A DNA stretch of 64,000 nucleotides from Candidatus Methanophagales archaeon (GCA_003336485.1 QENH01000200.1:7510-71509), one strand, 5' to 3'. Shown: positions 3,643 to 64,000, counted from the first letter of the stretch. Translations and numbers: made by a program. The notes: generated by a model from the letters alone, not told the origin.

Positions 3643-3645
3643 GCC

Positions 3646-8205: not shown

Positions 8206-8270
8206 TTTTATTATTTCTTTTGGTAAAGCTTTTCTTTCTAAGAAAAGGTTTCCATTAAGTTAAAGAAGAC

Positions 8271-9804: not shown

Positions 9805-10076
9805 ATATATTCCCATTTTTTTCGTTACTAAAAGCGAGCAGAAATCTATAGTGATATCGTAGAGGTATAACGTTGCTTATGTATTTGTGCAGTATCCCCG
9901 GGATATTTACAAATTCAAAGCTATGGTTCGGGCTATCGGATTCCTCTCCGTTTTGGAAAAATCAAGACGATTGCGATAACAAATATTATTTTATATCTTG
10001 TGGGGGCGTACATATATATATCCTATGTCGGCTTATATCAAACAATCTCATTAAGATGAAAAGAGGCGAATAAGAA

Positions 10077-11366
10077 ATGAACGACAATTCTAGCACCGTC
10101 AAGTGGGAAAAGAAGGAATTAGAGAAAATTTCTTTGGCTGAAGGAGTTAACGTGGAAAAATTGGAACAACTCCTTGGAGCAGGTCAAGTGGTAATCCCAA
10201 AAAACGCAAAGAGGGCAGAGAAGGGAGACATAACGCTAAAAGCTATTGGCGCTGGGATGAGTATGAAAGTGAACGTTAACGTAGGTACGTCAACGGATTA
10301 TGTTAGCGTCGAGGAAGAAGTAAGAAAGGCAAAGGTAGCGGTAGAATACGGCGCGGATGCCATAATGGACCTCTCCACTGGTGGAAACCTCGCTGCAACC
10401 AGGAGAGCGATTTTGAAAGAGGTAGATGTGCCAGTAGGGACGGTCCCGATATACCAGGCGGCTTTAGAGAAGGCTGATGAACGGGCAGTAGTGGACATGA
10501 GTTCCGATGACTTGTTCAATGCGGTAAGGACCCATGCAAAAGACGGAATAGATTTTGTCACCATTCATGCCGGTGTCAATCAGAATTCGTTGGCACGATT
10601 GAAACTTAGCGGGCGCATATTAGATGTTGTCAGTCGCGGTGGCGCGTTCCTCGTTGCTTGGATGATACATAACGAGCGTGAGAATCCATTTTACGCCGAA
10701 TATGATTACCTGTTGGAAATAGCGAACGAGTATGATTTAACGCTCAGTTTGGGCGATGGTATGCGTCCAGGTTGCGTTTCCGATGCTTCCGACCGTGCCA
10801 AATTTGCAGAAGCTATTACACTTGGCGAACTCGTGAAACGAGCTCGTGAAGAAGGTGTACAGGCAATGGTCGAAGGCCCGGGACATGTGCCATTAGACGA
10901 AATAGAAGCATCTGTAAAGATAATAAAGCATGTAACTGATTTTGCACCGCTTTACCTCTTAGGGCCTCTTGTTACTGACATCGCACCCGGATACGACCAT
11001 TTCGTGAGTGCGATCGGTGGTGCGGTTGCGGGGATGTACGGTGCGGACTTCCTATGTATGGTTTCGCCATCAGAGCATTTGGCGTTGCCATCAGTGGACG
11101 ACATAAAGGAAGGCACGATCGTAACGAAGATAGCTGCGCATGTCGCAGACCTTGTAAGAGAGGGGCAACGAGAAAAGGCGAGACAATTAGATGCTGAGAT
11201 GGCTCATGCAAGGAAAGGCCTCGATTGGAAAAGGCAATTTGAGCTCGCGATGAACCCTGAGGAAGCGATGAGAATAAGAAATAGCAGACTCTCGAAAAGC
11301 GATGCATGCTCTATCTGTGGCGATCTGTGCGCGATAAAGATGGTGAAGGAGTGTTTGGAGAAATGA
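10077..11366 (+). CDS. thiC: Phosphomethylpyrimidine synthase ThiC
   Basis: 429 aa with a conserved radical-SAM-type C-terminal CxxCxxxxC ([13 protein letters not shown]) and an overall ThiC-like sequence. Confidence 0.9.
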
Positions 11367-11486: not shown

Positions 11487-11534
11487 CTTGACGAATAGAA
11501 TAATGCAAAAAGATATGAGGTGAAAAAGAAGAAA
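11487..11534 (+). promoter_or_regulatory. Conserved 5' leader/promoter block shared by the three beta-helix paralogs. The other copies are at 14288-14322 and 16057-16107.
   Basis: The block ATGACGAATAGAATAA(A)TG(C/A)AAAAG recurs immediately upstream of each paralog start. Confidence 0.4.
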
Positions 11535-13940: not shown

Positions 13941-14322
13941 GCGGGGATATTTTGAACTGAATTCTGTCATCGCGATAACACGTCCCAAAGTTGGCTCTTC
14001 GTCCGTCCAGAACTCCCACATATCTTCATCACACGCCGAGTCATATATTCGCGGTGAATTCTCAGTATTGTCTGTCTCACCCTTATCCCGGTCATTGGTG
14101 AGCCAAGCAGTAGAGGAGAGCAACAATAATTTTTGAAGGGTGTATAGCGCGGTTTATTTCGATTATTCAGCCCTGCTTGTGGAGTCGAAAGAGGTTTCTA
14201 CTTTTGGAGTTATAAGGTCACAACTTGTTTATACGTTATCAACACACCAAAATAACACCTGTTCATTCTACCGAGGGTGTTTTATATCAACATGACGAAT
14301 AGAATAAATGAAAAGGAAAAAA

Positions 14323-15876
14323 ATGAAAAACCCAATAGCAATTTTATTGATAACTGCAATATTAACGCTAGCCATAGCTACAAGTGCACTGCCATTCTCG
14401 GCTTGCGCAACTACAAATAACCAAGATTCTTTGATACGGGCAACAGCCATGCCAGCACTAGCACAAGATAGTAAGGATACTCCCTGCGAAGACAACGCCA
14501 ATAGTATGGGATTTGCCCCGAACGCTGAGGAAAATGAGATAACAACGGGCAAGGAGGGCTTAGACACCATACAAATGGACGGGTCTTCATCAGCTCTTTC
14601 GCATGGCGATACAAAGCTACCATACAACTCTTCTGGCAACATAAAAAATGGCGGAGATCTGCATACATTAGAGAAAAAATCGAGTGGATCGAAACCGCCA
14701 GTGAAAGTATCGAAACAGCCGGTGAAAATATCGAAACCACCCGTGAAAGTATCTAAACTACTTTTAGTTCATAATAGGGACACCGGCAAGAACTTTGCTA
14801 CGATACAGGCTGCGATTGATGATTCTGATACCGTAGATGGGCATACGATTATGGTTGATCCAGGAACGTATACGGAAAATATAGTTGTTTACAAGTCTCT
14901 AACGATCAGATCAACCACAGGTAATCCGGCGGATACGATTGTCCCGGCTGCGGATTATAGAGCTCATGTCTTTAATGTGACCGCGGATTATGTGACTATA
15001 CGCGGGTTTACGGTATCGGGGGCAAATGATTATGATACACTGCCGGCCGGAATATATCTGGGAAACGGAGTGGATCACTGCAACATCTTAGATAATAATC
15101 TAATTGACAATTGGAGGGGCATCGATATATACTATTCCAACAACAACGGTCTCTCTAACAATAACGCCTGGTATAACGAGTATGGCATCGGTCTATCTCA
15201 TTCTAGCAACAACTGTCTCTCTAACAATAATATCTCGAATTTTAACCATTATAGCATCTACCTATTGGAATCTAGCAACAACTCCATCTCTAACAATAAT
15301 CTCTGGGATAACGAGTATGGCATATATCTGTCTTATTCCAGCAACAACTATATTTCTAACATTAATGGTTGGGCTAACAATTGTCATCTCATTACGCTGT
15401 CACATTCCTGCAACAACCATATTTCTAACATTAATGCATGGTTAAACTTCTATGGGGGTATCAGTTTGTCACATTCCAGCAACAACTCTATCTCAAACAT
15501 TAATACTTCGAACAACGATTTCTTTGGCCTCTATCTATCGGATTCCGACAACAACTGTCTCTATAACAATATTGTCTCGAACAACGGGGATTATGGTATC
15601 TACCTCTCTTCTTCTAGTAGCAACACCATCTACAACAACTATTTTGACAACACGAACAATGCTTGGGATGACGGAAGCAACATCTGGAACATCACGCCGA
15701 CCTTAGGCGAGAATATCATTGGCGGTTGCTTGCAGGGAGGTAATTATTGGAGCGATTACACGGGCATAGATGAAGATGGTGATGGACATGGAGATACAAT
15801 GCTACCATACAACTCTCCTGGTGAGATACAAAATGGCGGCGATTTGCGACCATTGGTACCTAGAACGTTTTTATGA
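14323..15876 (+). CDS. Secreted beta-helix repeat surface protein, paralog 2 (lacks the C-terminal domain)
   Basis: It has the same signal peptide and N-terminal region as paralogs 1 and 3, PbH1 repeats and the NosD-like tail, but ends at ...GDLRPLVPRTFL with no Ig-like or CFIATAAYG domain. Confidence 0.7.
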   Translation: MKNPIAILLITAILTLAIATSALPFSACATTNNQDSLIRATAMPALAQDSKDTPCEDNANSMGFAPNAEENEITTGKEGLDTIQMDGSSSALSHGDTKLPYNSSGNIKNGGDLHTLEKKSSGSKPPVKVSKQPVKISKPPVKVSKLLLVHNRDTGKNFATIQAAIDDSDTVDGHTIMVDPGTYTENIVVYKSLTIRSTTGNPADTIVPAADYRAHVFNVTADYVTIRGFTVSGANDYDTLPAGIYLGNGVDHCNILDNNLIDNWRGIDIYYSNNNGLSNNNAWYNEYGIGLSHSSNNCLSNNNISNFNHYSIYLLESSNNSISNNNLWDNEYGIYLSYSSNNYISNINGWANNCHLITLSHSCNNHISNINAWLNFYGGISLSHSSNNSISNINTSNNDFFGLYLSDSDNNCLYNNIVSNNGDYGIYLSSSSSNTIYNNYFDNTNNAWDDGSNIWNITPTLGENIIGGCLQGGNYWSDYTGIDEDGDGHGDTMLPYNSPGEIQNGGDLRPLVPRTFL

Positions 15877-16107
15877 TTGTACGCAATGTTTTGGCTGCAC
15901 AATGAGATTTTTTTATATATATATCAAGCCAAAATGTTCTAGCAAGCAGGTAGCGGCATTTTCCACTTGAAGAGTAAAAAACCCCTATCGTACCCATTTT
16001 ATGAGTCCCTAACACCTATGAATATGACATATTCACCCAACCTATGTCTTTTTATGCAGATATGATGAATAGAACAAATGCAAAAGTATGATGTGGAAAA
16101 GATAAAA

Positions 16108-19100
16108 ATGAAAACCCCAATAGCAATATTATTAATAGCCGCAATATTAACGCTAGCCATAGCTACAAGTGCACTCTCATTCTCGGCTTGCGCAACTACA
16201 AATAACCAAGAATCTTCGACATTGGCAACAGCCATGCCAGCACTAGCACAAGGTAGCAATGGTACCCCTAACGAAGACGACACCAGTAGTAGGGGATTTA
16301 CCCCGGATGCTGTGGCATGTGTCTTAACAAAGGACGTGGTGGCCTTTGATACCGTACAAATGGACGGTTTTGCATCTGCCCTTTCGCATGAAGATACAAC
16401 GCTTCCATACAACTCTTCGGGTAACAGACAAAAAGGCAGAGATATGCATACATCAGGGAAAATACCGAGTGAATCGGAACAGCCAGTAGAAGTATCAAAA
16501 CCACCATTGAAAGGATCTAAACAGCCAGTAAAAGTATCGAAACCGCCAATGAAAGAATCCAAACAACAATTAGTACATAATATAGACACAGGCGAGAACT
16601 TCACCACGATACAAGCTGCGATTGGTGATCCTGATACCGAGAATGGGCATACGATTACGGCTGATCCGGGAACGTATACGGAGAATGTAGTTGTTTACAA
16701 GTCTTTAACTATTCGCTCAACCACAGGAAATCCAGCAGATACGATTGTTCAGGCGGCGGATTCCTATGATCATGTCGTTAATGTGACTGCGGATTCTGTG
16801 ACTATAAGCGGGTTTACGGTGTCGGCGATAGATGGATATGCTGCAGGGATATATCTTGGAAGCGGAGTGGATCACTGCAATATCTCTGATAATAATGTAA
16901 CTGTCACTTATGGGTCGGGTATATATCTAGATTGTTCTAGCAACAACCTTATCTCTAACAATAATGCCTGTGGTAACGGGCCATCTGGCATCGAGCTGTC
17001 TCATTCCAACACCAATACTATCGTTAACAATACTGCAGACTATAATGACGAATATGGAATCCATCTGGATTATTCCAGCAACAACTTCATCTCTAACAAT
17101 AATGCCAGCGGGAATAACGGGCATGGCATCTATCTATCTCATTCCAACAACAACTCTCTTTCTAGCAATAATGTCTCGCAGTGTTGGTATGGCATCTATC
17201 TATCTCATTCCAACAACAACTCTCTTTCTAACAGTAATGTTTGGGGATTCGATGATGATGGCATCAGTCTATATTATTCTAGCAACAATTCGCTCTATAA
17301 CAATAACGTCTGGCTTAGCAGTGGTACGGGCATCCGTCTGTCATCTTCCAGCCACAACTCGCTCTCTAACAATAATGTCTTTAGTAACCTTGCTTTTGGC
17401 ATCGCGCTATATGGATCCAGCAACAACTCTCTTTCTACTAATACCCTAGAAAATAACGATTATGGCATCGAGCTGTCTCATTCCACCTGCAACTCGCTCT
17501 ATAACAATAATGTCTTGAAGAATGATGAGCATGGCATCCACCTCTCTTCTTCAGATAGCAACCTCATCTACAACAACATTTTCAACAACACGAACAACGC
17601 CTATGATGATGGAAGCAACATCTGGAACATCACAAAAGAATATACCCCAAACGGGAACATCATTGGCGGTCCTTACTTAGGGGGGAACAATTGGAGCGAT
17701 TACATGGGCATAGATAAAGATGGCGATGGACTTGGAGATACTTTGATGCCATACAACTCTTCGGGCGACATCCAAAACGGCGGCGATTTGCGGCCATTAG
17801 TGGAACCATCTGAACTACCAGTACATAATACAAACACAGGCGAGAACTTCGCCACGATACAAGCTGCGATTGATGATCCTGATACCGTGAATGGGCATAC
17901 GATTACGGCTGATCCGGGAACGTATATAGAGAATGTAGTTGTTTACAAGTCTTTAACTATGCACTCAACCTCAGGAAATCCATCAGATACGATTGTTCAG
18001 GCGGCGGATTCCTATGATCATGTCGTTAATGTGACTGCGGATTATGTGACTATACGCGGGTTTACGGTGTCGGGGGCATCATATGGATGGGATATAGCGG
18101 GAATATATCTTGGAAGCGGAGTGGATCATTGCACCATCTCTGATAATAATATAACTGACAATGGGTGGGGCATCTATCTGGATCATTCCAGCCACAACCA
18201 TCTCTATAACAATAATGTCCGGGGTAACGTCGGCGTTAATGGCGGCGGAATCAGGCTGTCATATTCCGGCGGCAACACTCTCTCTAACAATAACGTCTTG
18301 AACAACGAGGATGATGGCATCTGGCTATATCATTCCAACAACAACACTCTCTCTAACATTAATGCATCGCATAACTACTTTGGCATCATTCTGTCACATT
18401 GCAGCAACAACTCGCTCTTTAATATTGATGCTTCTAACGCATTCGCAAGCATATGGCTCTCTCAATCCAGCAACAACTCGCTCTTTAACATTAATGCCCG
18501 CCACAGCTCTGGTGACGCCGGCATTGTGCTGTTTCAATCCAGCAACAACTCGCTCTCTAACATTAATGCATCGGATGTCATGGGTTATCCTGGCATACAC
18601 CTCTCATCTTCCAGCAACAACTCGCTCTTTAACATTAATGCCTTTAACAACTTTTTAGGCATCGAGCTGTCAGATTCCAGCAACAACACTCTCTATAACA
18701 ATAATGTCTCGAATAACTATCTGTGGGGCATCGAGCTGTCACATTCCTCCTGCAACTCGCTCTATAACAATAATGTCTCGAACAATTATGATCTTGGCAT
18801 CCGCCTCTCTTCTTCAAACAATAACCGCATCTACAACAACATTTTCAACAACACGAACAACGCCTATGATGATGGAACAAACATCTGGAACATCACAAAA
18901 GAATATACGCCAAACGGGAACATCATTGGCGGTACTTACTTAGGGGGGAACAATTGGAGCGATTACATGGGCATAGATGAAGATGGCGATGGACTTGGAG
19001 ATACTTTGCTGCCATACAACTCTTCGGGCGACATCAAAAATGGCGGCGATTTGCGGCCTTTAGTGGAACCATCTGAACTACCAGTACATAATATAGACAC

Positions 19101-20616
19101 AGGCGAGAACTTCGCCACGATACAAGCTGCGATTGATGATCCTGATACCGTGAATTGGCATACGATTACGGCTGATCCGGGAACGTATACGGAGAATGTA
19201 GTTGTTTACAAGTCTTTAACTATTCGCTCGACCACAGGAAATCCATCAGATACGATTGTTCAGGCGGCGGATTCCTATGATCATGTCGTTAATGTGACTG
19301 CGGATTCTGTGACTATAAGCGGGTTTACGGTGTCGGGGGCACCAAGTTGGGATAGTGCAGGGATATATCTTGGAAGCGGAGTGGATCTTTGCACCATCTC
19401 TGATAATAATATAACTGACAATGGGAGGGGCATCTATCTGGATCATTCTAGCCACAACACTCTCTCTAACAATAATGCCCTGAAGAACTTTTGGTGTGGC
19501 ATCTATCTAGATTATTCCAGCAACAACAAGCTCCTCAACAATACTATCTTTCGAGGCGATTATGGCATCTATCTGGATTATTCCAGCAACAACTTCCTCT
19601 ATAACAATACTGTCGATTGGAGCGGTATGGAAGGCATAATTATGTCACATTGCAGCAACAATTCGCTCTTTAACAATAATGCCTGGGGTGTCAATGGTCC
19701 AGGCATCCATCTATCTTCTTCCAGCAACAACAACAATCTCTCAAACAATAATGCCTGGCATAACCTTGATGGTATCATTCTGTCACATTGCAGCAACAAC
19801 TCGCTCTTTAACAATAACGCCTGGTATAACGAGTATGGCATAGGTCTATATCATACCAACAACAACACTCTCTCAAACATTAATGCATCGCATAACGACT
19901 TTGGCATCTATCTGTATCATTGCAGCAGCAACTCGCTCTTTAACAATAACGCCTTTAACAACTATTTTGGCATCGAGCTGTCACATTCCAGCAACAACTC
20001 TATCTCAAACATTAATACATCGAACAACGATTTCTTTGGCATCTATCTATCTGATTCCGACAACAACTGTCTCTATAACAATATTGTCTTGAAGAATGAT
20101 GAGCATGGCATCCACCTCTCTTCTTCAGATAGCAACCTCATCTACAACAACATTTTCAACAACACGAACAACGCCTATGATGATGGAAGCAACATCTGGA
20201 ACAGCACAAACACCACGGGACCGAACATCATTGGTGGACCTTATATTGGCGGTAACTATTGGTCTGATTATGCAGGTATTGATTCGAATCATGATGGTTT
20301 TGGCGATACGCCTTATAATATACCGCCAGGCGGCATTAGCAAAGATTATTTACCGCTGGTTCCTGTTGAACCATCACCATGTTTCATAGCAACAGCAGCA
20401 TATGGTACGCCATTGCACGATGATATAGACGTTTTGAGAGATTTCCGAGACGAATATCTGATGATGAATCCAACAGGGAGAACATTTGTAAAAGTTTATT
20501 ATACATTGAGTCCACCGGTTGCGGATTTGATAAGGGGAAATGAAGGACTGGGAACTGCTGTACGGGAGGGTTTTGTTAAACCCTTAGTGTATGTTACGAG
20601 GATGTTTGTAGGCTGA
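16108..20616 (+). CDS. Giant secreted beta-helix repeat surface protein, paralog 3 (three tandem NosD-like modules)
   Basis: The same signal peptide is followed by three ~420-aa modules, each starting [22 protein letters not shown] and ending ...[13 protein letters not shown], then the C-terminal CFIATAAYG domain. The ORF-track start at 16078 is an upstream in-frame ATG. Confidence 0.8.
16576..20345 (+). repeat. Three tandem ~1.25 kb coding modules inside paralog 3. They start near 16576, 17824 and 19087, with a period of about 1248-1263 bp.
   Basis: Read directly from the sequence. Module ends are about 95% identical at nucleotide level (for example 17650-17822 vs 18900-19083), while interiors differ in PbH1 repeat content. 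Confidence 0.85.
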
Positions 20617-30700: not shown

Positions 30701-30812
30701 TAATCGGACGCAGATGAACGCAGATAATCAGGATTTTAAATATAAGGTTTAATTGACGGAGGAGATTATTAGAATCATTGAGGAACTAGTTTTCTGCGTA
30801 AATCCGCGTCCT
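30701..30812. repeat. Intergenic element with inverted termini, ~110 nt, copy 1. Copy 2 is at 49547-49660.
   Basis: The shared core is AATCGGACGCAGATAAT...GATTTT(A/T)AAT...GACGGAGGAGATTATTAGA. In copy 1 the termini GGACGCAG and CTGCGT..GCGTCC are reverse complements. Confidence 0.5.
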
Positions 30813-30896
30813 AAATAGGTGGAAGTTATACTTCATATATGCACTGCTCGGCGCTCTCCGCGGTGATAAAACAGTATATTTTTAGACTGTGTTGGT

Positions 30897-49546: not shown

Positions 49547-49660
49547 TAATCGGACGCAGATAATATGATTTTTAATATTTTTGATGGTTTATTAGACGGA
49601 GGAGATTATTAGACTCTTCTATCATCTCGTGGAAATCTGTGTAATCTCGTGGCGTATAAA
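49547..49660. repeat. Intergenic element, copy 2 (see 30701-30812)
   Basis: It shares the core AATCGGACGCAGATAAT...GACGGAGGAGATTATTAGA with copy 1. Confidence 0.5.
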
Positions 49661-49730
49661 AAAGGAGCTAAACAAATACAAGTTAAAGTATAAATATTAA
49701 TCACTGGCTAATGTGGGAGAGCGAAAGAAG

Positions 49731-54771: not shown

Positions 54772-54803
54772 AAAAAAACCTTTCTTTCAAAAAGAAAGCT
54801 TTA

Positions 54804-54878
54804 CCAAAGAAACAATATACCTTAGGTAAGATAACCTTCTTCCAAAGAAACAATATACCTTAGGTAAGATAACCTTTC
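54804..54878. repeat. Two tandem copies of a 38-nt unit (CCAAAGAAACAATATACCTTAGGTAAGATAACCTTTCT)
   Basis: Read directly from the sequence. It lies immediately 3' of motif copy C, in the ruvC/csl4 divergent region. Confidence 0.8.
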
Positions 54879-54973
54879 TTTCAAAAAGTTTTAAAACATT
54901 TAGCAAAGAAATATTAATTATACTTAGTATAAAGTAAATTGTTAAGGGGGAGTGAAAAGAAGGAAAGGAAGTA

Positions 54974-55537
54974 ATGGAGAAAGAAGAAGGTATTGTAGTT
55001 CCTGGGGATTTCCTGGGTACTTCTGAGGAATTTACGCCTGGGATGGGCGTGTATGATGAAACTGGAAATATTTATGCCTCTGTGACCGGAGAGATTAGCA
55101 TAAGTGATAAGAGGGTTATAGATGTCCTGCCAAAAGTAGGGACACCGCCAGTGCCAGAAGAGGGAGATGTGGTTATAGGCAGGATAGAAGATTTGAGAGA
55201 TGCTGTTGCTGTCGTGAATATAGCGCGAGTGAAAGGTAAAGATGATCGAGATGTTGCATCATCCACGCAGGGTATTATCCATATATCGAATATAAAGAGC
55301 GGGTATGTGTCAGAATTGCAGCGTGAGTTTGGTTATCTGGATCTGGTGAAGGCGAAAGTGCTGGACGCAAAGGCATTAAGACTTAGCACGGAGGGAAATG
55401 ATTTGGGCGTGATAAAAGCGATATGCGGGAAATGCAAAGGCGATTTGAGGAAGAAAGGGAATACGTTGACGTGTGATACGTGCAAGAGGGTAGAAGAAAG
55501 GAAGCTATCTGACGATTATGGTAAGGGATTAGTGTAG
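54974..55537 (+). CDS. csl4: Exosome complex RNA-binding subunit Csl4
   Basis: An S1 domain plus a C-terminal zinc ribbon (CGKCKGDL...CDTCKR), 187 aa. Confidence 0.8.
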   Translation: MEKEEGIVVPGDFLGTSEEFTPGMGVYDETGNIYASVTGEISISDKRVIDVLPKVGTPPVPEEGDVVIGRIEDLRDAVAVVNIARVKGKDDRDVASSTQGIIHISNIKSGYVSELQREFGYLDLVKAKVLDAKALRLSTEGNDLGVIKAICGKCKGDLRKKGNTLTCDTCKRVEERKLSDDYGKGLV

Positions 55538-55568
55538 CTAGCATACTAAACTAAGTGGTGATGTAAGC

Positions 55569-55859
55569 ATGGAGAATGGCGGGATAAAGATAAAGGTAGT
55601 GGAAAGGGCGGAGAATGAGCTGCGGCTGGAGATAGAAGGGGAGGGCAATACGCTTTTAGCACCGCTGACTTCCAAGCTCCTGGAGAATGAAAATGTAGAC
55701 CTAGCAACCAATAGCATGACACATTCGCTGCTGGGCAATTCCATATTGTATGTGAAGATGAAGGAGGGTGATGCTTTAGAAGCCATAAAATCTGCACTTA
55801 CTTCTCTTGCTTCCGACTTTGAAGAGTTTGGGCGGAAATACCGGGCGGCAATAGTCTAG
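55569..55859 (+). CDS. rpoL: DNA-directed RNA polymerase subunit L (Rpo11)
   Basis: 96 aa. IKVVERAENELRLEIEGEGNTLLAPL matches the Rpo11 N-terminus. Confidence 0.8.
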   Translation: MENGGIKIKVVERAENELRLEIEGEGNTLLAPLTSKLLENENVDLATNSMTHSLLGNSILYVKMKEGDALEAIKSALTSLASDFEEFGRKYRAAIV

Positions 55860-55915
55860 TGGTAGGACATAGGCTTCCCAAGCCTGTAACCCGGGTTCGA
55901 GCCCCGGTTGCCGCA
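55845..55915 (+). tRNA. tRNA-Gly (anticodon CCC)
   Basis: Manually folded:
- acceptor stem GCGGCAA/TTGCCGC;
- D-arm GTCT/GGAC;
- anticodon stem TAGGC/GCCTG with loop TTCCCAA;
- T-arm CCGGG-TTCGAGC-CCCGG;
- discriminator A.
No CCA is encoded, as is common in archaea. It overlaps the rpoL stop by 15 nt. Confidence 0.85.
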
Positions 55916-56018
55916 TAAAGCCGCCGCTCGTGTGGGGACGGTTTTCGGCAGACAACCATTAGGATATTAGTTTAGAACCGCTATCAAAGTAAACTAAATA
56001 CTGTGTTGGGCTGAGGAT

Positions 56019-57101
56019 ATGGATCAGATAAAGAAATATGAATTCAGGAAGGTATTGGAAGAACTGAGGGAAAAGACCGGGCGAGGAACCGAGCTCGTTT
56101 CCGTTTACATCCCGCAGGATAAACAGATTTCAGATGTTACTTCTCAGCTCCGTTCGGAGCACGGGCAGGCGATGAACATAAAGAGTAAATCGACACGTAC
56201 TAATGTTCAAAGCTCTCTGGAGTCAATATTAGCGAAGCTGCGGTACGTGCGTGTGGATGAGAACGGGTTGGTTATTTTCTGCGGTGCCGTTGCTAAGGGA
56301 GGGGACAGGACAGATATAGAAACTTTCATTGTGGAGCCGCCAGCGAAGATATATTCCTATATCTACCATTGTGATTCGAGCTTCTTCCTCGAGCCGCTGG
56401 AAGATCTAGTGGACGAGCACGAAAAATACGGCTTGATTGTGCTTGACAAAAGAGAGGCAACGATCGGTCTATTGAATGGTAAGGTGATAGAGTCGCTGAA
56501 GCACATAACTTCCGCTGTTCCGGGAAAGATGAGAAAAGGTGGGCAATCAGCACCGAGATTCCAGCGGCTGCGGTTAATAGCAATCGGGGATTTTTATAAG
56601 CGAATAGGCGAACATACAACACAAGCATTGCTTCATATGGACCTGAAAGGCATTTTGATTGGTGGACCCAGTCCGACGAAGGAGGAATTTTTAAAGGGGT
56701 CTTTCCTGCATTATGAGTTACAAGATAAGATACTGGGCATTTTTGATGTTGCATATACGGATGAATCGGGACTCTATGAACTCGTAGACAAAGCGGATGA
56801 TGTATTAGAGGGGTTGGATTTGGTGCGTGAGCGGAAGCTGATGACAAGGCTCATGAAACTATTGGTTAATAAGGATACTATGGTGGCATACGGCGAACAA
56901 GAAGTGCGGCGGAAATTGGAACAGGGTGCGGTGGATACGCTTTTGGTATCGGAAGAGCTAGATAAGGCGCTTGTGCACGATTTGGTGGAGATGGCCGAGG
57001 TGATAGGGTCAGACGTGGAACTAATTTCAATGGAGTTTGAGGAAGGTGCGCAGTTAAAGCGAGCTTTTGGTGGCGTTGCTGCTATATTGCGCTATGGCTA
57101 G
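56019..57101 (+). CDS. prf1: Peptide chain release factor aRF1
   Basis: The N-terminus YEFRKVLEELREKTGRGTELVSVYIP, the NIKS-containing segment QAMNIKSKSTR and the GGQ motif (KMRKGGQSAPRFQRLR) are all present. Confidence 0.85.
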   Translation: MDQIKKYEFRKVLEELREKTGRGTELVSVYIPQDKQISDVTSQLRSEHGQAMNIKSKSTRTNVQSSLESILAKLRYVRVDENGLVIFCGAVAKGGDRTDIETFIVEPPAKIYSYIYHCDSSFFLEPLEDLVDEHEKYGLIVLDKREATIGLLNGKVIESLKHITSAVPGKMRKGGQSAPRFQRLRLIAIGDFYKRIGEHTTQALLHMDLKGILIGGPSPTKEEFLKGSFLHYELQDKILGIFDVAYTDESGLYELVDKADDVLEGLDLVRERKLMTRLMKLLVNKDTMVAYGEQEVRRKLEQGAVDTLLVSEELDKALVHDLVEMAEVIGSDVELISMEFEEGAQLKRAFGGVAAILRYG

Positions 57102-57356
57102 AAGGTAAATTCACGCCATGGGCCTGTGTCCGCCCCACCGATTAAAAGCACACACAGCAAAAGGCTTATATATCCCTTGTACACTTCCAATTTTTAACGG
57201 TCTGCTTTGTGGAAGGCGATAAAAACAAAGATGGACCTTACTTAAAGCGATACGAACGAAGCGTACTTTAGCTTGACCTGAAACTGCTCTGAACCATTTT
57301 GTGATGAAATCCTCAATTTTCTTATTGTATTGTCTAGATACTCAATATACAATAAA

Positions 57357-57527
57357 GAACCCACCGCCGCGGATGGCCCGGTAGGCGCCATCTCCTTTCC
57401 ATACGCTGCCGTCAGTAGGTGCGCCGTCCGTCATAGCAAACCAGACATTGTTGTCAGGCAGGACTTCGTATCCGCGTTTTAGCTCGAGAATTGATGTACT
57501 GTAAGCTTTGAGGTTTCATGTAATTTG
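57357..57527 (-). pseudogene. Short gene fragment (C-terminal ~57 codons, no start) in a decayed intergenic region
   Basis: Own translation: NLKAYSTSILELKRGYEVLPDNNVWFAMTDGAPTDGSVWKGDGAYRAIRGGGFFIVY*. It is bounded upstream by an in-frame TGA and has no ATG. It weakly resembles the C-terminus of FGE-sulfatase/SUMF1-like domains (NVWEW...R..RGGS). Confidence 0.3.
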
Positions 57528-57785
57528 AGGGGGTTTTGAGGATACCAAAGCTTTGATCCGTTGTGTTGCAAGGCTATAGCAGAGAGTAGCGGTTCCAAAT
57601 AATGTGCTTCGCATTTTGTTCGTTCTATCGCTTTATGACAACCTTTTTGGTGGTGAGTATCAAAACAAAAAAGCGAATAGCTTTTAATATCCTAGGTCAT
57701 ACCTGTGATAAACGTGTAGTTTATGTCATCGGCGGTCTTGCTTAAAGGCAGGCCTTGTACTTAAGTACGCTGTATGGTGACTTTA

Positions 57786-58499
57786 TCAACCCCAACGTTC
57801 ATGGCTCAACATTGACCGATTCAACTCTTCTTTATATAAACGCCATTGCGGCATAAATTTATCCAGATATGCTATAAAACGATCGCTGTGGTTGCGCACT
57901 AAAAGGTGTATCATCTCGTGTACGATAATGTATTCAAGACAGGTTTCCTGCTTTTTCGCGAGTTCTAGATTTAACCAAATTCGACGACTTGCAAGAGTGC
58001 AAGTGCCCCATTTGGTTTTCATTTTCTTAATACCCCAGTCATCAACTTCCACTCCGATTATCTTTTGCCATTTATCCAATAGTGCAGGTACTTGATCTTT
58101 AAGTTGCTTCCGATACCATTTGGTAAGCACTTTCTCGCGCTGCTCGGTCGTGCTCCCAACCCGAACGTAAAGGTCAATATAGGTTTTATTGCGTATTTCT
58201 ACTTTGGGGCTAGCATTGCAATAAATAACATTTAATATATAGCGCCTGCCGTTGTAATAATGACTTTCTCCGGACACAAATTTACGTGCTGATTGACGTT
58301 CTTGAGCTTCAAATTTCAATTGCTGTTTTCTTATCCACGCCATTTTCGTTATAGCAAAAAGGCTAACAGCATCATCATCTAGTTTCAGTGGTGTAGCAAT
58401 GCGCACCCGGCCGTTGGGCGGATATACACCAAGATGCAGATTCTTTATATCCTTTCTTACCACATCTATTGATAGGTCACCTACAGTAATCCGGTGCAT
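57786..58499 (-). CDS. DUF45/YgjP-like M48-family zinc metallohydrolase (accessory gene often found with type I R-M systems)
   Basis: HEMIHLLVRNH (HExxH), 237 aa, positioned directly downstream of hsdR. Confidence 0.75.
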   Translation of the reverse strand: MHRITVGDLSIDVVRKDIKNLHLGVYPPNGRVRIATPLKLDDDAVSLFAITKMAWIRKQQLKFEAQERQSARKFVSGESHYYNGRRYILNVIYCNASPKVEIRNKTYIDLYVRVGSTTEQREKVLTKWYRKQLKDQVPALLDKWQKIIGVEVDDWGIKKMKTKWGTCTLASRRIWLNLELAKKQETCLEYIIVHEMIHLLVRNHSDRFIAYLDKFMPQWRLYKEELNRSMLSHERWG

Positions 58500-58500
58500 T

Positions 58501-61500
58501 TTAATAGTCCCTCTGATTTTTGACTAACCCAAAAATAAGGTCTACTTCATCATCATCATCTATGTGTTTTCGTATCGCATATTTTACTTCACGCTCCTTT
58601 ATCAAATTGCCACGCCAGCCGTCTTTTTTCGTGTGACTGATTTCCGCATCCAGAGCAATCGTGAGTTCTTCATCATGGCTCAAATTATCGTATAGGGCGC
58701 GTTTGGCATTAGAATCCAACCGTTTAGGATATATAGCAGAATCAGCAGGTTTTTTTACTTTTTTACTTAATTCGACTATTTTGGCCAAATATTCTTTATA
58801 ACTTTTGGCTTCTTCTTTTCGTTCATTTATCAATTCATCCAGAAGCGTTGACATATTCTCGTAATACTTCGGATTGGTAGGCATTTGATCGATTATCAGC
58901 CTGCGCATATTGTTTTCTATTGTTTCCGCCACGGCTTCTTTGTTCCTTGTTATGCCTTTCGGTAATGCGTTTACCGCATCCGCGCCTCGTTCTACGATCA
59001 AATCGATCAGCGTCATGTCATCAAAAGCAGAAATCGTTTTGCTTTCTTCTGCACCTATGTACGTGTCTATCAAATGACGCATAGCAGGCTCGTATGCCTT
59101 CAAGTCAATATAATCACCACTTGCCAGTTTTATTTCGGCTCTTACAGCTTCATAATACGCAACATCTCTTTTTATCTGCTCAATTTCTTCTGGTCTATAA
59201 CCGGCTTTCACCATTTCGTTTGCTATGTCGGCATAGGCTCTGATCAATGCTGCTGTATGCTTATATAATGCGATACGCTTTTGTTCCGTTTCTTTTAATT
59301 CGTTCTTAATTTCCGGGTTGCCACAGAAGTAACGAGTATAAGCCAGAGTATCTTTTGGTGCTGCTACCGGTTCGCACAACGCTTTTATTGCTTCCAGTGC
59401 ATTATCTAATCGTTCCTTGCCCAGTGCCAATCTGTCAGTCAATAAACCTGCTACATCTTCTTGTTCGTACGCATCGAATGCTCCTGAGGTATAATCGTCT
59501 ATTGCCTTTTCAAGGCTTTTGAATAGGTCTTTGTAATCGATGATATAGCCATATTCTTTGTCATCGCCATCTAAACGGTTTACACGGCAGATGGCTTGAA
59601 ACAGCCCATGATCCTGCATACTCTTATCAATGTAGAGATAGGTAGCGGAAGGGGCGTCAAAGCCCGCAAGCAGTTTATCCACAACAATGAGCAATTTCAT
59701 CTGGGCAGGTTCTTCTACAAACTTCTTTTTTACTTCTTCTTCAAACGTCTTTGGATCTTTACCATCCAACATCTTCTGATAAACGTCGTATTTCTTCAGT
59801 TTGTCAGTAGGCGAGTCTTCGCCGGTGCTTTCGCCTTTTTGGTCTCCCATTGAGGGTATGTAAGAGGTGACAATGGCACATTTTTTCAAGCCTGCATTTT
59901 GAAACAGTTCATAATATCTACATGCCTGATAAATACTACCTGAGACCAGCATGGCATTGCCCGCACCGTTTTGCAGCCGGTCTTTTGTTTCTATGTCCAG
60001 TAAAATATCGGCAACAATTTTTTCTAATCGTGATTGTGAGCTGAGGACACGTTTCATGGTGCCCCATTTCTTCTTCAGTTCGATTTTGGCGTAGTCGGTT
60101 AATCCTCTTGTCTTTGCCTCGAACCACTGGTCTATCTTTGCCGGTGAGGTGATATTCTGGTCAACGTTCCGTGCCTCGTATCGCAGATCAAGCACTACCT
60201 CATCTTTTACTGCTTCATCGTATTTGTAGGTGTGGATATATTTGCCAAATACTTCTATGCTTTTCTTCTTATCTTTCTTTAGCAGGGGCGTGCCGGTAAA
60301 ACCGATGAGCAATGCATCAGGCAAAATGAATTTCATGGCTTCGTGCAGCTTACCCGACTGTGTGCGGTGGCACTCATCCACAAATACGTAGATGTCGCCT
60401 TTTGCTCGAAAGTCTCTGGGCAGATTTTTCCGGAGGTCTTCTATATAGCCGTCATAATCAGCCTCTTCTTTATTTGCGAATTTATGGATTAGCGAGCAGA
60501 GCAGCCAGGGCGTTGTCGCATTCAATTTATCAATCAAATCTATTCCGCTTCTGGTGCGGGCAATCTTTTCACTGAGACCCAAAAATACTTTCTCTATCTG
60601 CTTATCCAGATCATCACGGTCGGTGATGATGAGTACCCGGGCATCATTGATATTCTCGCGTATCCATTTGGCAAGCCAGACCATGATCAGGCTTTTGCCG
60701 CTACCCTGGGAGTGCCAGATGATACCGCCTTCGCGTTTGCCTATGCTTGCCTGAGATGTCTTGACTGCAAAGTACTGATTGTGCCGGCAGATCTTTTTGG
60801 TGCCGCGATCGTAGACGATAAAATCGTGTAAGAGCTCCAGAAACCGCTCTTTATTGCATAGCTGTGTAATGTGCCGATCAAGCGGGTTTTCTATGTCGCT
60901 TTCTTCTTTCCATGAGAGCCAATATTTTTCCGGTGTTTCGATAACGCCGTAGCGGATGCCTTCGGTATCGTTGCCTGCCATTATCAATTGAATAGTAGCA
61001 AAAAACGGGCGGATAAAAGTTTGCTTTTGATTGTCCAGATTCTGGCGAATACCTTCGGAAACGGACACGGTGCTGCGTTTTAGTTCCAATACGCCTAAGG
61101 CAATGCCATTGACATATAGCACCACGTCCGGGCGTTTATCGTTTTCGCCTTTTACTGTTACCTCTTCTGCTATGGCGAACTCATTTTCAAGTGGATTTTC
61201 CCAATCTATCAGCTTAACGGTCTGGGTGTTTTCACCTACCTCTTCCTTTACACTTACGCCATAACGCAACAGGGAATATACATCTTTGTTGAGGTCGTGC
61301 AAACTCTTGCTCTGGTTGGTTGCGGCCCTGGTAAGCTCGTAAATGGCTTTGACGATAAGGATCTGGCTATAACCTCTTTTAAGCAGGTACTGGTGTAAAA
61401 TCTTCTTTTCTATATTGCCATTGTTCTCGCGGTCTTCCCAGTTGCCGAGATATTCATAGCCTAAATGTGTTTGGAACAGGTCTACCACTCGGTCCTGTGT

Positions 61501-61530
61501 GATGCGTTCTATTTGTCCTATTGGTGTCAT
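58501..61530 (-). CDS. hsdR: Type I restriction enzyme R subunit HsdR
   Basis: 1009 aa with an N-terminal nuclease-domain region, the SF2 helicase motif I (HSQGSGKS) and DEAH-like motif II (VFVDECHRTQ), plus C-terminal helical domains. Confidence 0.9.
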   Translation of the reverse strand: MTPIGQIERITQDRVVDLFQTHLGYEYLGNWEDRENNGNIEKKILHQYLLKRGYSQILIVKAIYELTRAATNQSKSLHDLNKDVYSLLRYGVSVKEEVGENTQTVKLIDWENPLENEFAIAEEVTVKGENDKRPDVVLYVNGIALGVLELKRSTVSVSEGIRQNLDNQKQTFIRPFFATIQLIMAGNDTEGIRYGVIETPEKYWLSWKEESDIENPLDRHITQLCNKERFLELLHDFIVYDRGTKKICRHNQYFAVKTSQASIGKREGGIIWHSQGSGKSLIMVWLAKWIRENINDARVLIITDRDDLDKQIEKVFLGLSEKIARTRSGIDLIDKLNATTPWLLCSLIHKFANKEEADYDGYIEDLRKNLPRDFRAKGDIYVFVDECHRTQSGKLHEAMKFILPDALLIGFTGTPLLKKDKKKSIEVFGKYIHTYKYDEAVKDEVVLDLRYEARNVDQNITSPAKIDQWFEAKTRGLTDYAKIELKKKWGTMKRVLSSQSRLEKIVADILLDIETKDRLQNGAGNAMLVSGSIYQACRYYELFQNAGLKKCAIVTSYIPSMGDQKGESTGEDSPTDKLKKYDVYQKMLDGKDPKTFEEEVKKKFVEEPAQMKLLIVVDKLLAGFDAPSATYLYIDKSMQDHGLFQAICRVNRLDGDDKEYGYIIDYKDLFKSLEKAIDDYTSGAFDAYEQEDVAGLLTDRLALGKERLDNALEAIKALCEPVAAPKDTLAYTRYFCGNPEIKNELKETEQKRIALYKHTAALIRAYADIANEMVKAGYRPEEIEQIKRDVAYYEAVRAEIKLASGDYIDLKAYEPAMRHLIDTYIGAEESKTISAFDDMTLIDLIVERGADAVNALPKGITRNKEAVAETIENNMRRLIIDQMPTNPKYYENMSTLLDELINERKEEAKSYKEYLAKIVELSKKVKKPADSAIYPKRLDSNAKRALYDNLSHDEELTIALDAEISHTKKDGWRGNLIKEREVKYAIRKHIDDDDEVDLIFGLVKNQRDY

Positions 61531-61533
61531 ATC

Positions 61534-62150
61534 TTAGCCCCCTATAACTTTCCAATGCCCGCCTTTATCTGGGCCAACTCTTATAAGTTTACCCTCTTGT
61601 TGCAAGTTTTGGATGTTTCTTTCGATTGAACGTGTGGTTACGCCAATTATTTCTGCAAGTTCCGGTATCGTTATCCAGTCATTTGATTTAATTGCCTCCA
61701 CTATTTTCACCGACGTTTTCACCGACGTTTCTTCCGGAACAATATAGTTACTTAGCTTAAACTCAAGATAAAAACCGGAGAAATCATACTTGAATTCAGG
61801 TACGGGCAAACCAGCTCTCTTGCATTCACTGTTAATTTTCTGAATGCCTCGCCCCCCATGCTTCAATTAAGCCTGCACGGAAAAATGCATTCGCAATATC
61901 GGGATTATACGGTTTGGAGGGGTGTTTTTGTTTTAGCGTTTCAATTGTCCAGTTTTCAGGTAATTGACCATCGTTCCATAAAACTATTTTATCATCATAA
62001 ACGCTTATTTGGATGGGGACGCCGTTGCTATAATCTTTGTGTACAACGGCATTTAACAGGGCTTCACGCAAAGCCGGTCTGGGAAACGGGTATTTTTCAA
62101 TTCTGGTCAGATCGTCATAACTTATATTCGCCCTCATGTATTTGGTAAGC
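61534..62150 (-). pseudogene. Transcriptional-regulator-like ATPase gene (HATPase_c_4 core plus C-terminal wHTH; AlbA_2/Schlafen-like family), 5'-truncated and frameshifted
   Basis: Two overlapping ORFs (61832-62230 and 61534-61866) carry the HATPase_c_4-like core (LLNAVVHKDYSNGVPIQISVYDDKIVLWNDG) and the wHTH tail. The frameshift is near the C-run at ~61855-61861. Homology stops at ~62150, where sequence identical to the beta-helix repeat begins. Confidence 0.6.
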
Positions 62151-64000
62151 AGCAACACGATACATAGCAATACCGCTTCAAGCAACGACTTCGGCATCGA
62201 TCTGTATTCTTCAAGCAACAATAACCGCATCTATAACAACTACTTCAACAACTTCCATAACAATGCTCGAGATGACGGGAGCAACATCTGGGACATCTCG
62301 CCGACCTTAGGAGGGAACATAATCGGCGGTTCCTGGCTGGCTGGTAACTACTGGAGCGATTATGCCGGAATAGATGCAAATGGCGATGGGCTTGGAGATA
62401 CATTACTACCGTATAACGCCAATGGTGATATTTTAATAGGTGGCGATATGCATCCATTGGTTCCAGCGGGTATTGCACCCCTTTTAGCACTAAAAAAATC
62501 AGACGACCTCGATCCCATCCCGCCCGGCGGCACATTGAACTATTCTATTATCGTGAATAACGTTGGATATATAACAACAACGAATGTCACAGTGACAGAG
62601 ACATACGATATGAACGTTGCCTACGACTCGGCTATGCCTGCGCCTTCATCAGGAAACGACATGTGGATATTCCCGGTGCTCAATGCAAACGAGAGCAAAT
62701 GGATCAATATTTCCGTTATTGTCAACCCGTCCATTCCGATAGGAACGGTCCTACATAATACCGTTAATGTGTCCAGTGCAGAAGGAGTAACTGATTCTGA
62801 TACAGAGGCTACAACTGTCTTCTTCGGTGAACAAAACTGCACCTGTGGCGACATATGTGTAATTACAACCGGCTGGTGGCGAGATGGCGGCGCGTTTCAT
62901 CCAACTGATACGCCGATACAAGATGCAATAGAGAACGCAGGTACGGGTGATACTATTTGCGTTAAGGATGGCACGTACAATGAGAACGTGAATGTGGACA
63001 AGCGATTAACGCTAAAATCGGATAACTGTGCTGCTTCGACCACGGTTAATGCTTTATATCCAAATGAGCATGTATTTGAGGTGACTGCGGATTATGTAAA
63101 CATATCGGGATTCACTGTTAAAGGAGCAACAGGTAAAGGAAAGGCAGGAATATATCTCAGCAGTAGCATAGATCACTGCAACATTTATGATAACAACGCT
63201 TCGGATAATAACTATGGCATCTATATGATGGAGTCGAGCTACAACAGGATCACAAGCAATACCGTCTCGAACAACGACAGGTATGGCATTTACCTGCGGC
63301 GTGAGTCGAGCAACTACAACACAATCACAAACAACATTGCTTTGAACAACGACTACGGCATCCGCCTGTCTCATTCCAGCAACAACACGATACATAGCAA
63401 TACCGCTTCAAGCAACGACTTCGGCATCGATCTGTATTCTTCAAGCAACAATAACCGCATCTATAACAACTACTTCAACAACTTCCATAACAATGCTCGA
63501 GATGACGGGAGCAACATCTGGGACATCTCGCCGACCTTAGGAGGGAACATAATCGGCGGTTCCTGGCTGGCTGGTAACTACTGGAGCGATTATGCCGGAA
63601 TAGATGCAAATGGCGATGGGCTTGGAGATACATTACTACCGTATAACGCCAATGGTGATATTTTAATAGGTGGCGATATGCATCCATTGGTTCCAGCGGG
63701 TATTGCACCCCTTTTAGCACTAAAAAAATCAGACGACCTCGATCCCATCCCGCCCGGCGGCACATTGAACTATTCTATTATCGTGAATAACGTTGGATAT
63801 ATAACAACAACGAATGTCACAGTGACAGAGACATACGATATGAACGTTGCCTACGACTCGACTATTCCTGCGCCTTCCGTAGGGAATGACACGTGGATAT
63901 TCCCTGCACTCAATGCAAACGAGACCAGATGGATTAATATTTCCGTTTCTGTCAATCCGTCCACTCCGATAGGAACTGTTCTACATAATATCGTTAAGGT
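62136..64000 (+). CDS. Beta-helix/NosD-like plus DUF11-like repeat protein. It is open-ended with no stop in the window, no signal peptide at the first ATG, and is probably a fragment.
   Basis: Own translation of the plus strand from ATG 62136 (preceded by an in-frame TAA at 62118): [40 protein letters not shown]...[37 protein letters not shown]...DUF11-like LALKKSDDLDPIPPGGTLNYSIIVNNVG...CTCGDICVITTGWW...PbH1 repeats, then the same unit again. The ORF track missed it because the ORF does not terminate inside the window. The minus-strand ORFs listed here are antisense artefacts. Confidence 0.6.
   Translation, partial: MYLVSSNTIHSNTASSNDFGIDLYSSSNNNRIYNNYFNNFHNNARDDGSNIWDISPTLGGNIIGGSWLAGNYWSDYAGIDANGDGLGDTLLPYNANGDILIGGDMHPLVPAGIAPLLALKKSDDLDPIPPGGTLNYSIIVNNVGYITTTNVTVTETYDMNVAYDSAMPAPSSGNDMWIFPVLNANESKWINISVIVNPSIPIGTVLHNTVNVSSAEGVTDSDTEATTVFFGEQNCTCGDICVITTGWWRDGGAFHPTDTPIQDAIENAGTGDTICVKDGTYNENVNVDKRLTLKSDNCAASTTVNALYPNEHVFEVTADYVNISGFTVKGATGKGKAGIYLSSSIDHCNIYDNNASDNNYGIYMMESSYNRITSNTVSNNDRYGIYLRRESSNYNTITNNIALNNDYGIRLSHSSNNTIHSNTASSNDFGIDLYSSSNNNRIYNNYFNNFHNNARDDGSNIWDISPTLGGNIIGGSWLAGNYWSDYAGIDANGDGLGDTLLPYNANGDILIGGDMHPLVPAGIAPLLALKKSDDLDPIPPGGTLNYSIIVNNVGYITTTNVTVTETYDMNVAYDSTIPAPSVGNDTWIFPALNANETRWINISVSVNPSTPIGTVLHNIVK
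62150..62630 (+). repeat. Direct repeat, copy 1, of a ~1.23 kb unit. Copy 2 is at 63380-63860.
   Basis: Blocks compared by eye (62161-62340 vs 63391-63570 and 62581-62630 vs 63811-63860) are identical at a 1230-bp offset. Downstream the copies diverge to roughly 85%. Confidence 0.8.
63380..63860 (+). repeat. Direct repeat, copy 2 (see 62150-62630)
   Basis: Same comparison as for copy 1. Confidence 0.8.

Follow-up and report, generated by a model that had tools for sequence, protein, structure and literature searches.

Bioinformatics analysis revealed that the window (the whole 64-kb stretch of DNA analysed here, which originates from ANME-1, an uncultured methane-oxidising archaeon) contains the 3' half of a type I restriction-modification (R-M) operon, with intact hsdR and ygjP genes placed behind the remnant of a regulator gene, and with neither hsdM nor hsdS. 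Probably, a vertically inherited operon lost hsdM and hsdS through a rearrangement at a short microhomology, which left the hsdR-ygjP stub. HsdR of type I systems depends on the M2S1 core for finding and binding DNA, and is itself without a DNA-recognition element. Because of this dependence, the locus appears to be an incomplete type I R-M system, predicted from its gene content neither to methylate nor to restrict DNA by itself. All of the elements that the initial annotation had assigned to a remnant type I R-M locus were recovered by ORF, profile and alignment evidence, none of them being due to chance, and are located as follows:

57102–57785, no strand: spacer between the R-M module and the aRF1 gene (blastn)
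57786–58499, minus strand: ygjP, DUF45/YgjP-like HExxH metallohydrolase, 237 aa, intact, starting 1 nt past the hsdR stop
58501–61530, minus strand: hsdR, type I restriction subunit, 1009 aa, intact
61534–61854, minus strand: regulator remnant, distal piece, with the end of HATPase_c_4, a TSVK linker repeat, wHTH and the stop codon at 61534–61536 (Pfam, alignment)
61852–61857, minus strand: G6 homopolymer, where a +1 insertion shifts the reading frame of the regulator remnant (DNA alignment with relatives L007 and L013)
61856–62155, minus strand: regulator remnant, proximal piece, residues 232–331, with the start of HATPase_c_4 (PF13749; alignment to intact 443- and 449-aa proteins)
62148–62155, no strand: rearrangement junction, 8-nt imperfect microhomology (three-way comparison)
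62136–64000, plus strand: NosD/Beta_helix/DUF11 cell-surface-type repeat gene, 5'-truncated, running off the window (Pfam, repeats, ORF coordinates)

The product of hsdR scores 541.6 bits against TIGR00348 hsdR (cutoff, 284.55), gives an end-to-end alignment (residues 1–1007) to the PADLOC REase_I model PDLC03044, and has Pfam matches to HSDR_N, SWI2_SNF2/ResIII and T1R_D3-like domains. In agreement with the 1009-aa protein with intact helicase motifs described in the initial annotation, all motifs of the PD-(D/E)xK nuclease and the SF2 helicase are present: PD...ELK (134/149), GSGKS (276), DECH (385), TGTP (412), and QAICR (645). Across 53 relatives, 238 columns are conserved at 95% or more; HsdR retains 236 of these, and is no outlier among the relatives. 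The closest solved structure is that of HsdR from EcoR124I (2W00; E-value, 8 × 10−36), a distantly related type IC enzyme that shares the nuclease and SF2 motor core (residues 100–677).

YgjP matches PF01863 over the full length of the domain (204.6 bits; profile positions 3–206 of 207) and carries the HExxH motif as HEMIH at positions 194–198. Conserved columns are kept at 44 out of 45 positions, the exception being V201, which replaces the glutamate of HExxHxxE located three residues past the second histidine; E is found at this position in 61 of the 64 relatives, including the three closest. The gene directly follows hsdR in the same orientation, with a gap of 1 nt, and in 64 out of 66 relatives ygjP is found within 150 nt after hsdR, in line with its earlier description as the usual type I partner. 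Literature searches for a documented link of YgjP/DUF45 or COG1451 to type I systems gave nothing usable, and we know of no ygjP partner of EcoR124I. The lack of erosion in hsdR and ygjP fits a very recent loss of hsdM and hsdS and continued selection equally well.

Among the 45 HsdR relatives with enough upstream DNA to be counted, 44 have hsdM and hsdS ahead of hsdR in the same orientation, whereas the operon of the window is cut at 62155. When HsdM and HsdS sequences from relatives were used as tblastn queries, no match, not even a fragment, was found across the 64-kb window. Profile HMMs built from 51 HsdM and 53 HsdS sequences likewise detected no member among the 696 stop-to-stop ORFs of the window (best E-values, 0.32 and 0.36, respectively). 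Neither an HsdM (N6_Mtase) nor an HsdS (Methylase_S, two target recognition domains) is encoded within the 64 kb, which extends the earlier remark that both genes are missing upstream of hsdR.

The question of whether relatives have the two missing genes at the corresponding position is answered by a syntenic ANME-1 relative (Methanophagales MAG JAUWND010000016, referred to as L006), in which the operon occupies the same site next to aRF1, and hsdM-x-ASCH-hsdS abuts hsdR. L006 and the window share 92.6% nucleotide identity across hsdR-ygjP, and 90.7% across the 7.9 kb of core genes next to it. The dS values of hsdR and ygjP (0.19–0.30) equal those of the flanking core genes (0.12–0.34), and dN/dS of the two genes ranges from 0.14 to 0.22 overall (0.14–0.18 for hsdR in comparison with the three ANME-1 relatives L006, L025 and L002). 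Since the synonymous divergence matches that of the neighbouring core genes, these values indicate that hsdR-ygjP was inherited vertically and, as judged from substitution patterns, was functional in the past.

On the aRF1 side, part of the spacer (57102–57483) is conserved with L006 and L025, while blastn found the sequence at 57484–57776 to be unique to the window, and the R-M homology to all of the relatives stops at 57777–57782. At the position of the spacer, L006 has an IS5/IS1182-like transposase remnant. An Rfam scan of 56900–64000, spacer included, gave no match. When metagenomes were searched with aRF1 as the anchor, distant relatives were found to lack R-M genes and to have aRF1 followed by a TraB-like gene; in L091, the only close relative for which a right flank was available, the sequence diverges straight past aRF1. 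The search recovered neither a clean empty site nor the state before the deletion.

The regulator remnant (61537–62155, minus strand) aligns with residues 232–443 of intact 437–449-aa AlbA_2+HATPase_c_4+wHTH proteins, the C-terminal 212 codons being all that is left of a ~440-aa gene. Residues 1–231 are missing together with the whole AlbA_2 (Schlafen-like) domain, which occupies residues 3–108 in the intact relatives. HATPase_c_4 and wHTH are both recognisable, but split by a +1 frameshift: the proximal piece matches PF13749 with 48.5 bits, and the distal piece, which corresponds to residues 332–443 in the alignment to L007 and L013, matches Pfam HTH_11, HTH_24 and the tail of HATPase_c_4. 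The frame is broken at the G6 run, which is G5 in L007 and GGGGA in L013 at the same site; the six-G version is also present in a Logan contig from SRR6058406. The domain family, 5'-truncation and frameshift named in the initial annotation are all borne out by these alignments. The frameshifted stub is a case of secondary decay, and in annotation the regulator should be marked as a pseudogene and the locus as an incomplete R-M system. As a clock for the loss, the frameshift is uninformative, as one lesion in the ~620-bp stub versus none in the 3.7 kb of hsdR and ygjP has P ~0.14 under equal neutral rates.

As reported before, the homology of the regulator ends abruptly where the beta-helix repeat begins: the match to five independent relatives (including L007, L013, L093 and L094) ends at exactly 62155, and from 62148 rightwards the sequence is that of the second copy of a 1230-bp repeat belonging to a plus-strand NosD/Beta_helix/DUF11 ORF. 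Comparing the window with both repeat copy 2 and L007/L013 resolved the junction to 62148–62155, which reads TTGCTGCT on the minus strand, with TTGTTGCT in the parental repeat copy. The regulator remnant is joined here to the interior of the oppositely oriented beta-helix gene, the ORF of which opens after a stop at 62118 and has its first ATG (62136) inside the remnant. The beta-helix gene has Pfam matches to NosD (178 bits), Beta_helix, DUF11, and DUF7507, and consists of 1230-bp tandem modules (62148–62770 and 63378–64000 are 96% identical). When the gene was considered as a native neighbour, no similarity to the upstream DNA of L006 or to the NosD gene of L025 was found. Insertion of a mobile element was rejected as the cause, as there is no transposase, inverted repeat or target duplication at the junction.

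Since the repeat includes fully identical (100%) stretches of 300 nt or more, which are error-prone for assemblies, the junction could also be a chimeric join into a multi-copy repeat, with the true genome carrying an intact regulator, hsdS and hsdM at this place. A 7.3-kb contig from the Logan k=31 assembly of SRR6058406 is, however, 100% identical to the window over 54847–62182 and crosses the junction. It stops 30 nt into the repeat, as an artefact might lead one to expect, but it contains every junction 31-mer and ends exactly at the last unique one (62152–62182), where k-mers turn non-unique, and it carries the G6 frameshift as well. In addition, the overlap at the join is just 8 nt and imperfect, far under any assembler k-mer. 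Because a separate k=31 de Bruijn assembly spans the junction, a scaffolding artefact is unlikely, and the chimeric join with intact genes behind it is very improbable; SRR6058406 may be the read set behind the genome itself, in which case the contig confirms the junction against mis-scaffolding within one sample. Exact-protein look-ups with HsdR and the 110-aa regulator ORF returned only the same 7.3-kb contig, stopping at 62182, and the junction 34-mer had no match in JGI metagenome contigs. The junction, for which the initial annotation had named an assembly artefact as a refuting outcome, is taken as real.

Based on these observations, the common ancestor of this ANME-1 (Methanophagales) lineage would have carried, next to the aRF1 gene, an operon of the order hsdM - (cargo) - hsdS - (cargo, here the AlbA_2/HATPase_c_4/wHTH gene) - hsdR - ygjP. 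Illegitimate recombination at the 8-nt microhomology then probably joined regulator codon 232 to the interior of the oppositely oriented NosD/DUF11 gene. In the simplest version, this event would be a deletion that removed the 5' ends of both genes together with hsdS, hsdM and the operon promoter between them. The regulator stub is in addition frameshifted by a +1 slip in the G5 run. In the window, the stop codon of the regulator is located 3 nt ahead of the hsdR ATG, and in L006 hsdS overlaps the start of hsdR; hsdR thus has no intergenic promoter of its own; the operon promoter has probably been lost, and the locus is probably inactive. The loss of M and S would be harmless to the cell, because HsdR without the M2S1 core cannot find or bind DNA, and the stub could persist. 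The initial annotation had left a choice between a dying defence island and one disrupted at ~62150. The evidence supports reading these as one event, as the breakpoint cuts hsdR-ygjP off from the usual position of hsdM and hsdS. The word "dying" suits the locus but not the hsdR and ygjP genes, which are without erosion so far (236/238 and 44/45 conserved columns).

Loss of M and S has to be weighed against a split but working system, in which hsdR-ygjP was kept because its M2S1 core comes from hsdMS genes at an unlinked position, either the original pair moved by inversion or translocation or a second type I system of the same family. The geometry of the junction would suit inversion as well as deletion, and after an inversion both missing genes could still be present on the far side of the beta-helix gene. 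Neither hsdR nor ygjP is damaged or has excess substitutions at conserved positions, and their dN/dS is 0.14–0.22. Pairwise dN/dS, however, averages long branches and is blind to a recent release from selection; moreover, hsdR, probably without the operon promoter, is located directly behind a broken, frameshifted gene, and the genes are linked in 44 of the 45 loci of the HsdR clade. N-terminal fragments of the regulator, the reciprocal product of an inversion, were sought and none came from SRR6058406, which is a weak negative. The same search turned up other decayed loci. We know of no split type I architecture of the Staphylococcus aureus kind described in archaea. In S. aureus, a single hsdR works with hsdMS pairs, one to three in number, that lie far from it (PMC6918075); a lone hsdR is not automatically dead, which qualifies the earlier statement that an R subunit without M and S is non-functional on its own. 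On balance, the split system is considered unlikely. That hsdR-ygjP, shaped by purifying selection, has been kept as a still working pair is a distinctly doubtful proposition, for which action in trans with an unlinked hsdMS would be the most plausible form and a variant independent of M and S a far less likely one.

Such independence would make hsdR-ygjP a self-sufficient module of a translocase-nuclease and a metallohydrolase. The adjacency of the pair in 64 out of 66 loci and its intactness in the window without M or S agree with this, but hsdM and hsdS accompany the pair in 44 of the 45 informative loci, HsdR is devoid of a DNA-recognition element, YgjP of the window has V in place of the conserved glutamate of HExxHxxE, and relatives inactivate hsdR yet keep ygjP, which argues against an obligate function of the pair. 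This reading is the least credible of all. Loss of M and S from a vertically inherited operon is the preferred reading.

The state of the locus is ordinary decay of a defence locus. In L006 and L025, which are sister lineages with the same chromosomal site, hsdR has a nonsense codon and lacks codons 1–326, respectively, and L025 has no M or S. Of the more distant relatives, at other or unknown sites, L093 has a frameshift and a nonsense codon, while L095 and L096 have an hsdR-ygjP fusion and a split regulator. Lesions that differ in this way are consistent with restriction having been lost repeatedly in these uncultured archaea. Incomplete R-M loci are frequent. Structural variants in hsdRSM have, in addition, already been reported from variable genomic hotspots of ANME-1 (Zhou et al. 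2026, PMC13385816), a paper that gives the trend for the same clade, gene class and phenomenon; for these two reasons, the locus on its own matters little. It is of modest value as a base-resolved example of a vertically inherited type I operon, disabled at one site by different lesions in sister lineages, and it illustrates how hsdR, being harmless by itself, can remain after hsdMS has gone.

Among the known systems, the same-clade operons of L006 and Candidatus Methanoperedens nitroreducens (NZ_JMIY01000002, L005) are the most similar, with HsdR 82–91% and YgjP 80–94% identical to those of the window. The complete operons of this clade have hsdR-ygjP spacing equal to that of the window, which differs from them by the absence of hsdM, hsdS and the 5' 231 codons of the regulator and by the truncated beta-helix gene fused at the break. 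The Sau1-type systems of S. aureus likewise have an intact hsdR without adjacent hsdM or hsdS (PMC6918075), but in a conserved and stable arrangement, whereas the lone hsdR of the window results from a visible breakpoint in the neighbouring gene and its relatives belong to linked operons. The remnant of Staphylococcus epidermidis ATCC 12228, judged non-functional, is also a partial type I locus after component loss (PMC6918075); it has a truncated hsdR and has kept hsdS without hsdM, whereas in the window hsdR is intact and M and S are both gone.

Three genes occupy the minus strand at 57786–62155, in the 5′ to 3′ order gene stub, hsdR and ygjP:

61537–62155, minus strand: regulator stub, the C-terminal remnant of an AlbA_2/HATPase_c_4/wHTH gene, aligning to residues 232–443 of intact proteins of 437–449 aa
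58501–61530, minus strand: hsdR, a 1009-aa ORF with HSDR_N, SWI2_SNF2/ResIII and T1R_D3-like domains
57786–58499, minus strand: ygjP, with a full-length YgjP-like/DUF45 domain (204.6 bits) and the motif HEMIH

The initial annotation described an intact HsdR of 1009 aa with helicase motifs, followed by a YgjP/DUF45 HExxH gene, and both descriptions were confirmed. HsdR passes TIGR00348 (541.6 bits; cutoff, 284.55), aligns from end to end with PDLC03044, the type I REase model of PADLOC, and contains both the nuclease motif (PD134...ELK149) and helicase motifs (GSGKS276, DECH385, TGTP412 and QAICR645). Of the 238 columns conserved at 95% or more in an alignment of 53 relatives, it retains 236, its deviations at conserved columns being typical of the family (family median, 3). 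The nearest solved structure is that of EcoR124I HsdR (2W00; E-value, 8 × 10−36). The stop codon of hsdR and the start of ygjP are one base apart. At residue 201 of YgjP (58499–57786, minus strand), the window has HEMIHLLVRNH, as against HEMxHLxERNH in 61 of 64 relatives, the three closest among them. This replacement of a near-invariant glutamate beside HExxH by valine may be a first inactivating change.

The absence of HsdM and HsdS from the locus, also noted initially, holds within the 64 kb: tblastn with the HsdM and HsdS proteins of relatives gave no match, and profile HMMs (51 HsdM, 53 HsdS) found neither among all 696 window ORFs (stop-to-stop, at least 40 aa), with best E-values of 0.32 and 0.36. 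Scanning one genome for each species yielded 75 loci with relatives of the window HsdR. hsdM and hsdS lie upstream on the same strand in 44 of the 45 loci having at least 6 kb of upstream sequence, and ygjP starts at most 150 nt from the end of hsdR in 64 of the 66 with enough downstream DNA. Variable cargo is found between hsdM, hsdS and hsdR, namely the AlbA_2 regulator, DUF1016/YhcG nucleases, Bro-N, ORF6N, AAA_21, ASCH and, in some operons, even an OLD-family ATPase and UvrD pair; the internal cargo of this hsdM–hsdS–hsdR-ygjP operon family includes other defence genes. In two relatives (L094, 4019–7743; L099, 811–2706), OLD-family ATPase/TOPRIM and UvrD-helicase genes, a Gabija-like pair, are situated between hsdS and the AlbA_2 regulator.

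Intact homologues of the regulator consist of AlbA_2, HATPase_c_4 and a C-terminal winged helix, and in several relatives (L007, L013, L093, L094) their genes directly precede hsdR. The gene in the window is frameshifted and 5′-truncated, as first described: it lacks its first 231 codons, including the AlbA_2 domain, and is split by a +1 insertion (G6 at 61852–61857 versus G5 in L007 and GGGGA in L013). Since only 3 nt separate the stop codon of the stub from the hsdR ATG, hsdR lacks a separate intergenic promoter and must have depended on co-transcription from upstream. In the linker preceding the wHTH (61700–61730, minus strand), a TSVK tetrapeptide is tandemly repeated, with two copies in the window, three in L007 and five in L013.

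The abrupt end of regulator homology at about 62150, where beta-helix repeats begin, was borne out and could be placed precisely. Nucleotide homology stops exactly at 62155 for five independent relatives (L007, L013, L093, L094 and the protein P0003), while the sequence rightwards from 62148 equals copy 2 of a 1230-bp tandem module (62148–62447 and 63378–63677 are identical; 96% identity across 623 nt). The module is part of a plus-strand ORF with NosD, Beta_helix, DUF11 and DUF7507 domains that exceeds the window end, and the parental sequences share an 8-nt overlap (TTGCTGCT versus TTGTTGCT). The beta-helix ORF begins mid-module and its sole upstream ATG (62136) is inside the regulator stub; therefore, its own 5′ end and any signal peptide have been lost too. 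Two divergently oriented genes, both 5′-truncated at one point, are the expected product of a single deletion of the DNA separating them. If an inversion had instead broken these two genes, the local picture would be identical; this alternative is less favoured, and a search for its reciprocal product gave no match from the same sample, which is a weak negative. A cluster of NosD/beta-helix paralogues (ORFs of 806, 522 and 1512 aa) is found at 11520–20616, with patchy nucleotide identity of 65–75% to the truncated gene at 62148–64000; together they form a large, recombination-prone family of cell-surface repeat proteins.

That the join is an assembly artefact, a possibility raised initially, appears very improbable. 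In the Logan assembly (k = 31) of SRR6058406, one 7336-bp contig matches window 54847–62182 with 100% identity and stops at the last 31-mer unique in the window (62152–62182); thus, all junction-spanning k-mers, as well as the G6 frameshift, are present in the reads. In addition, an imperfect overlap of 8 nt could not make an assembler join the two sequences. The contig rules out mis-scaffolding but not population heterogeneity, because the read set may be the source of the genome itself; the junction 34-mer had no match in JGI metagenome contigs. A repeated 31-mer also coincides with the other end of the Logan contig, which breaks where a sequence of about 35 bp (CCAAAGAAACAATATACCTTAGGTAAGATAACCTT) is directly duplicated in tandem (two copies; 54800–54876), in the intergenic spacer that separates the divergent RuvC-like and Csl4 genes.

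In the proposed scenario, an ordinary type I R-M operon would have had its 5′ part removed or displaced by illegitimate recombination at 62148–62155. It is likely that the locus is a non-functional remnant left by a genuine rearrangement, more probably a deletion than an inversion; this supports the earlier view of a dying or disrupted type I system. HsdR of type I enzymes requires binding to the M2S1 core, the source of sequence recognition, for its activity, so the locus alone cannot restrict; a lone HsdR also does the cell no harm, and an intact hsdR can thus outlast hsdMS. The claim that R is non-functional without M and S therefore stands for the locus alone, but a lone hsdR is no proof of inactivity, as in S. 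aureus one hsdR serves distant hsdMS pairs (PMC6918075). With this precedent, a split system that still works is conceivable, though rather unlikely; neither hsdR nor ygjP is eroded, which is compatible with continued use and fits a very recent event equally. A role of hsdR-ygjP independent of M and S is hardly credible.

Three Methanophagales (ANME-1) MAG contigs are approximately 91–92% identical to the window. One of them, L006 (JAUWND010000016), is collinear (SecY through aRF1, 90.7% over 7.9 kb; hsdR-ygjP, 92.6%) and at this site, where the initial annotation had proposed looking for hsdM and hsdS in relatives, hsdM, a 114-aa ORF, an ASCH gene and hsdS are present, the last of these directly adjoining hsdR. 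In L006, hsdR itself (5320–8349) is interrupted by an in-frame stop at codon 913. The likewise collinear L025 has no M or S, and its hsdR (6278–8368) lacks codons 1–326. The dS values of hsdR (0.24–0.30) and ygjP (0.19–0.20) match those of flanking core genes (0.12–0.34), and dN/dS of hsdR/ygjP is 0.14–0.22, which therefore indicates vertical inheritance, with purifying selection acting over most of the period.

Decayed loci are also found elsewhere. In L093, the regulator and ygjP are intact, and hsdR (2028–5056) contains a frameshift near codon 152 and a nonsense codon. The regulator is split in L099, as well as in two Methanoperedens loci, beside an 820-aa fusion that appears to be an internal deletion joining hsdR to ygjP:

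L095, 1986–4448, and L096, 1942–4404: hsdR-ygjP fusion ORF with HSDR_N, SWI2_SNF2, T1R_D3-like and YgjP-like domains

The three types of lesion in orthologous or close hsdR genes (L006, L025, L093) represent repeated loss of restriction function. All components belong to well-known families, partial type I loci are common, and hsdRSM structural variants have been reported within variable hotspots of ANME-1 genomes (PMC13385816); the remnant is a correct but ordinary finding, its sole mildly notable aspect being that one inherited locus bears differing inactivating lesions across sister lineages.

Gene order past aRF1 differs between these lineages. In more distant aRF1-anchored relatives, R-M is absent and a TraB-like gene, missing from the window, L006 and L025, is found instead; in L078, L083, L085 and L089 (aRF1 amino-acid identity, 76–81%), this conserved membrane protein of approximately 440–490 aa is encoded downstream. 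Between ygjP and aRF1, L006 has an IS5/IS1182-like transposase remnant (DDE_Tnp_1_6, DUF772; 9985–10554, minus strand; window ~57385–57483), of which the window retains only the edge, followed by 293 bp (57484–57776) matching nothing. Window segments 30717–30839 and 49638–49679 show 79–88% identity to non-homologous places (L025, 1–123 and 5080–5121; L006, 634–673) and may be a small dispersed repeat.
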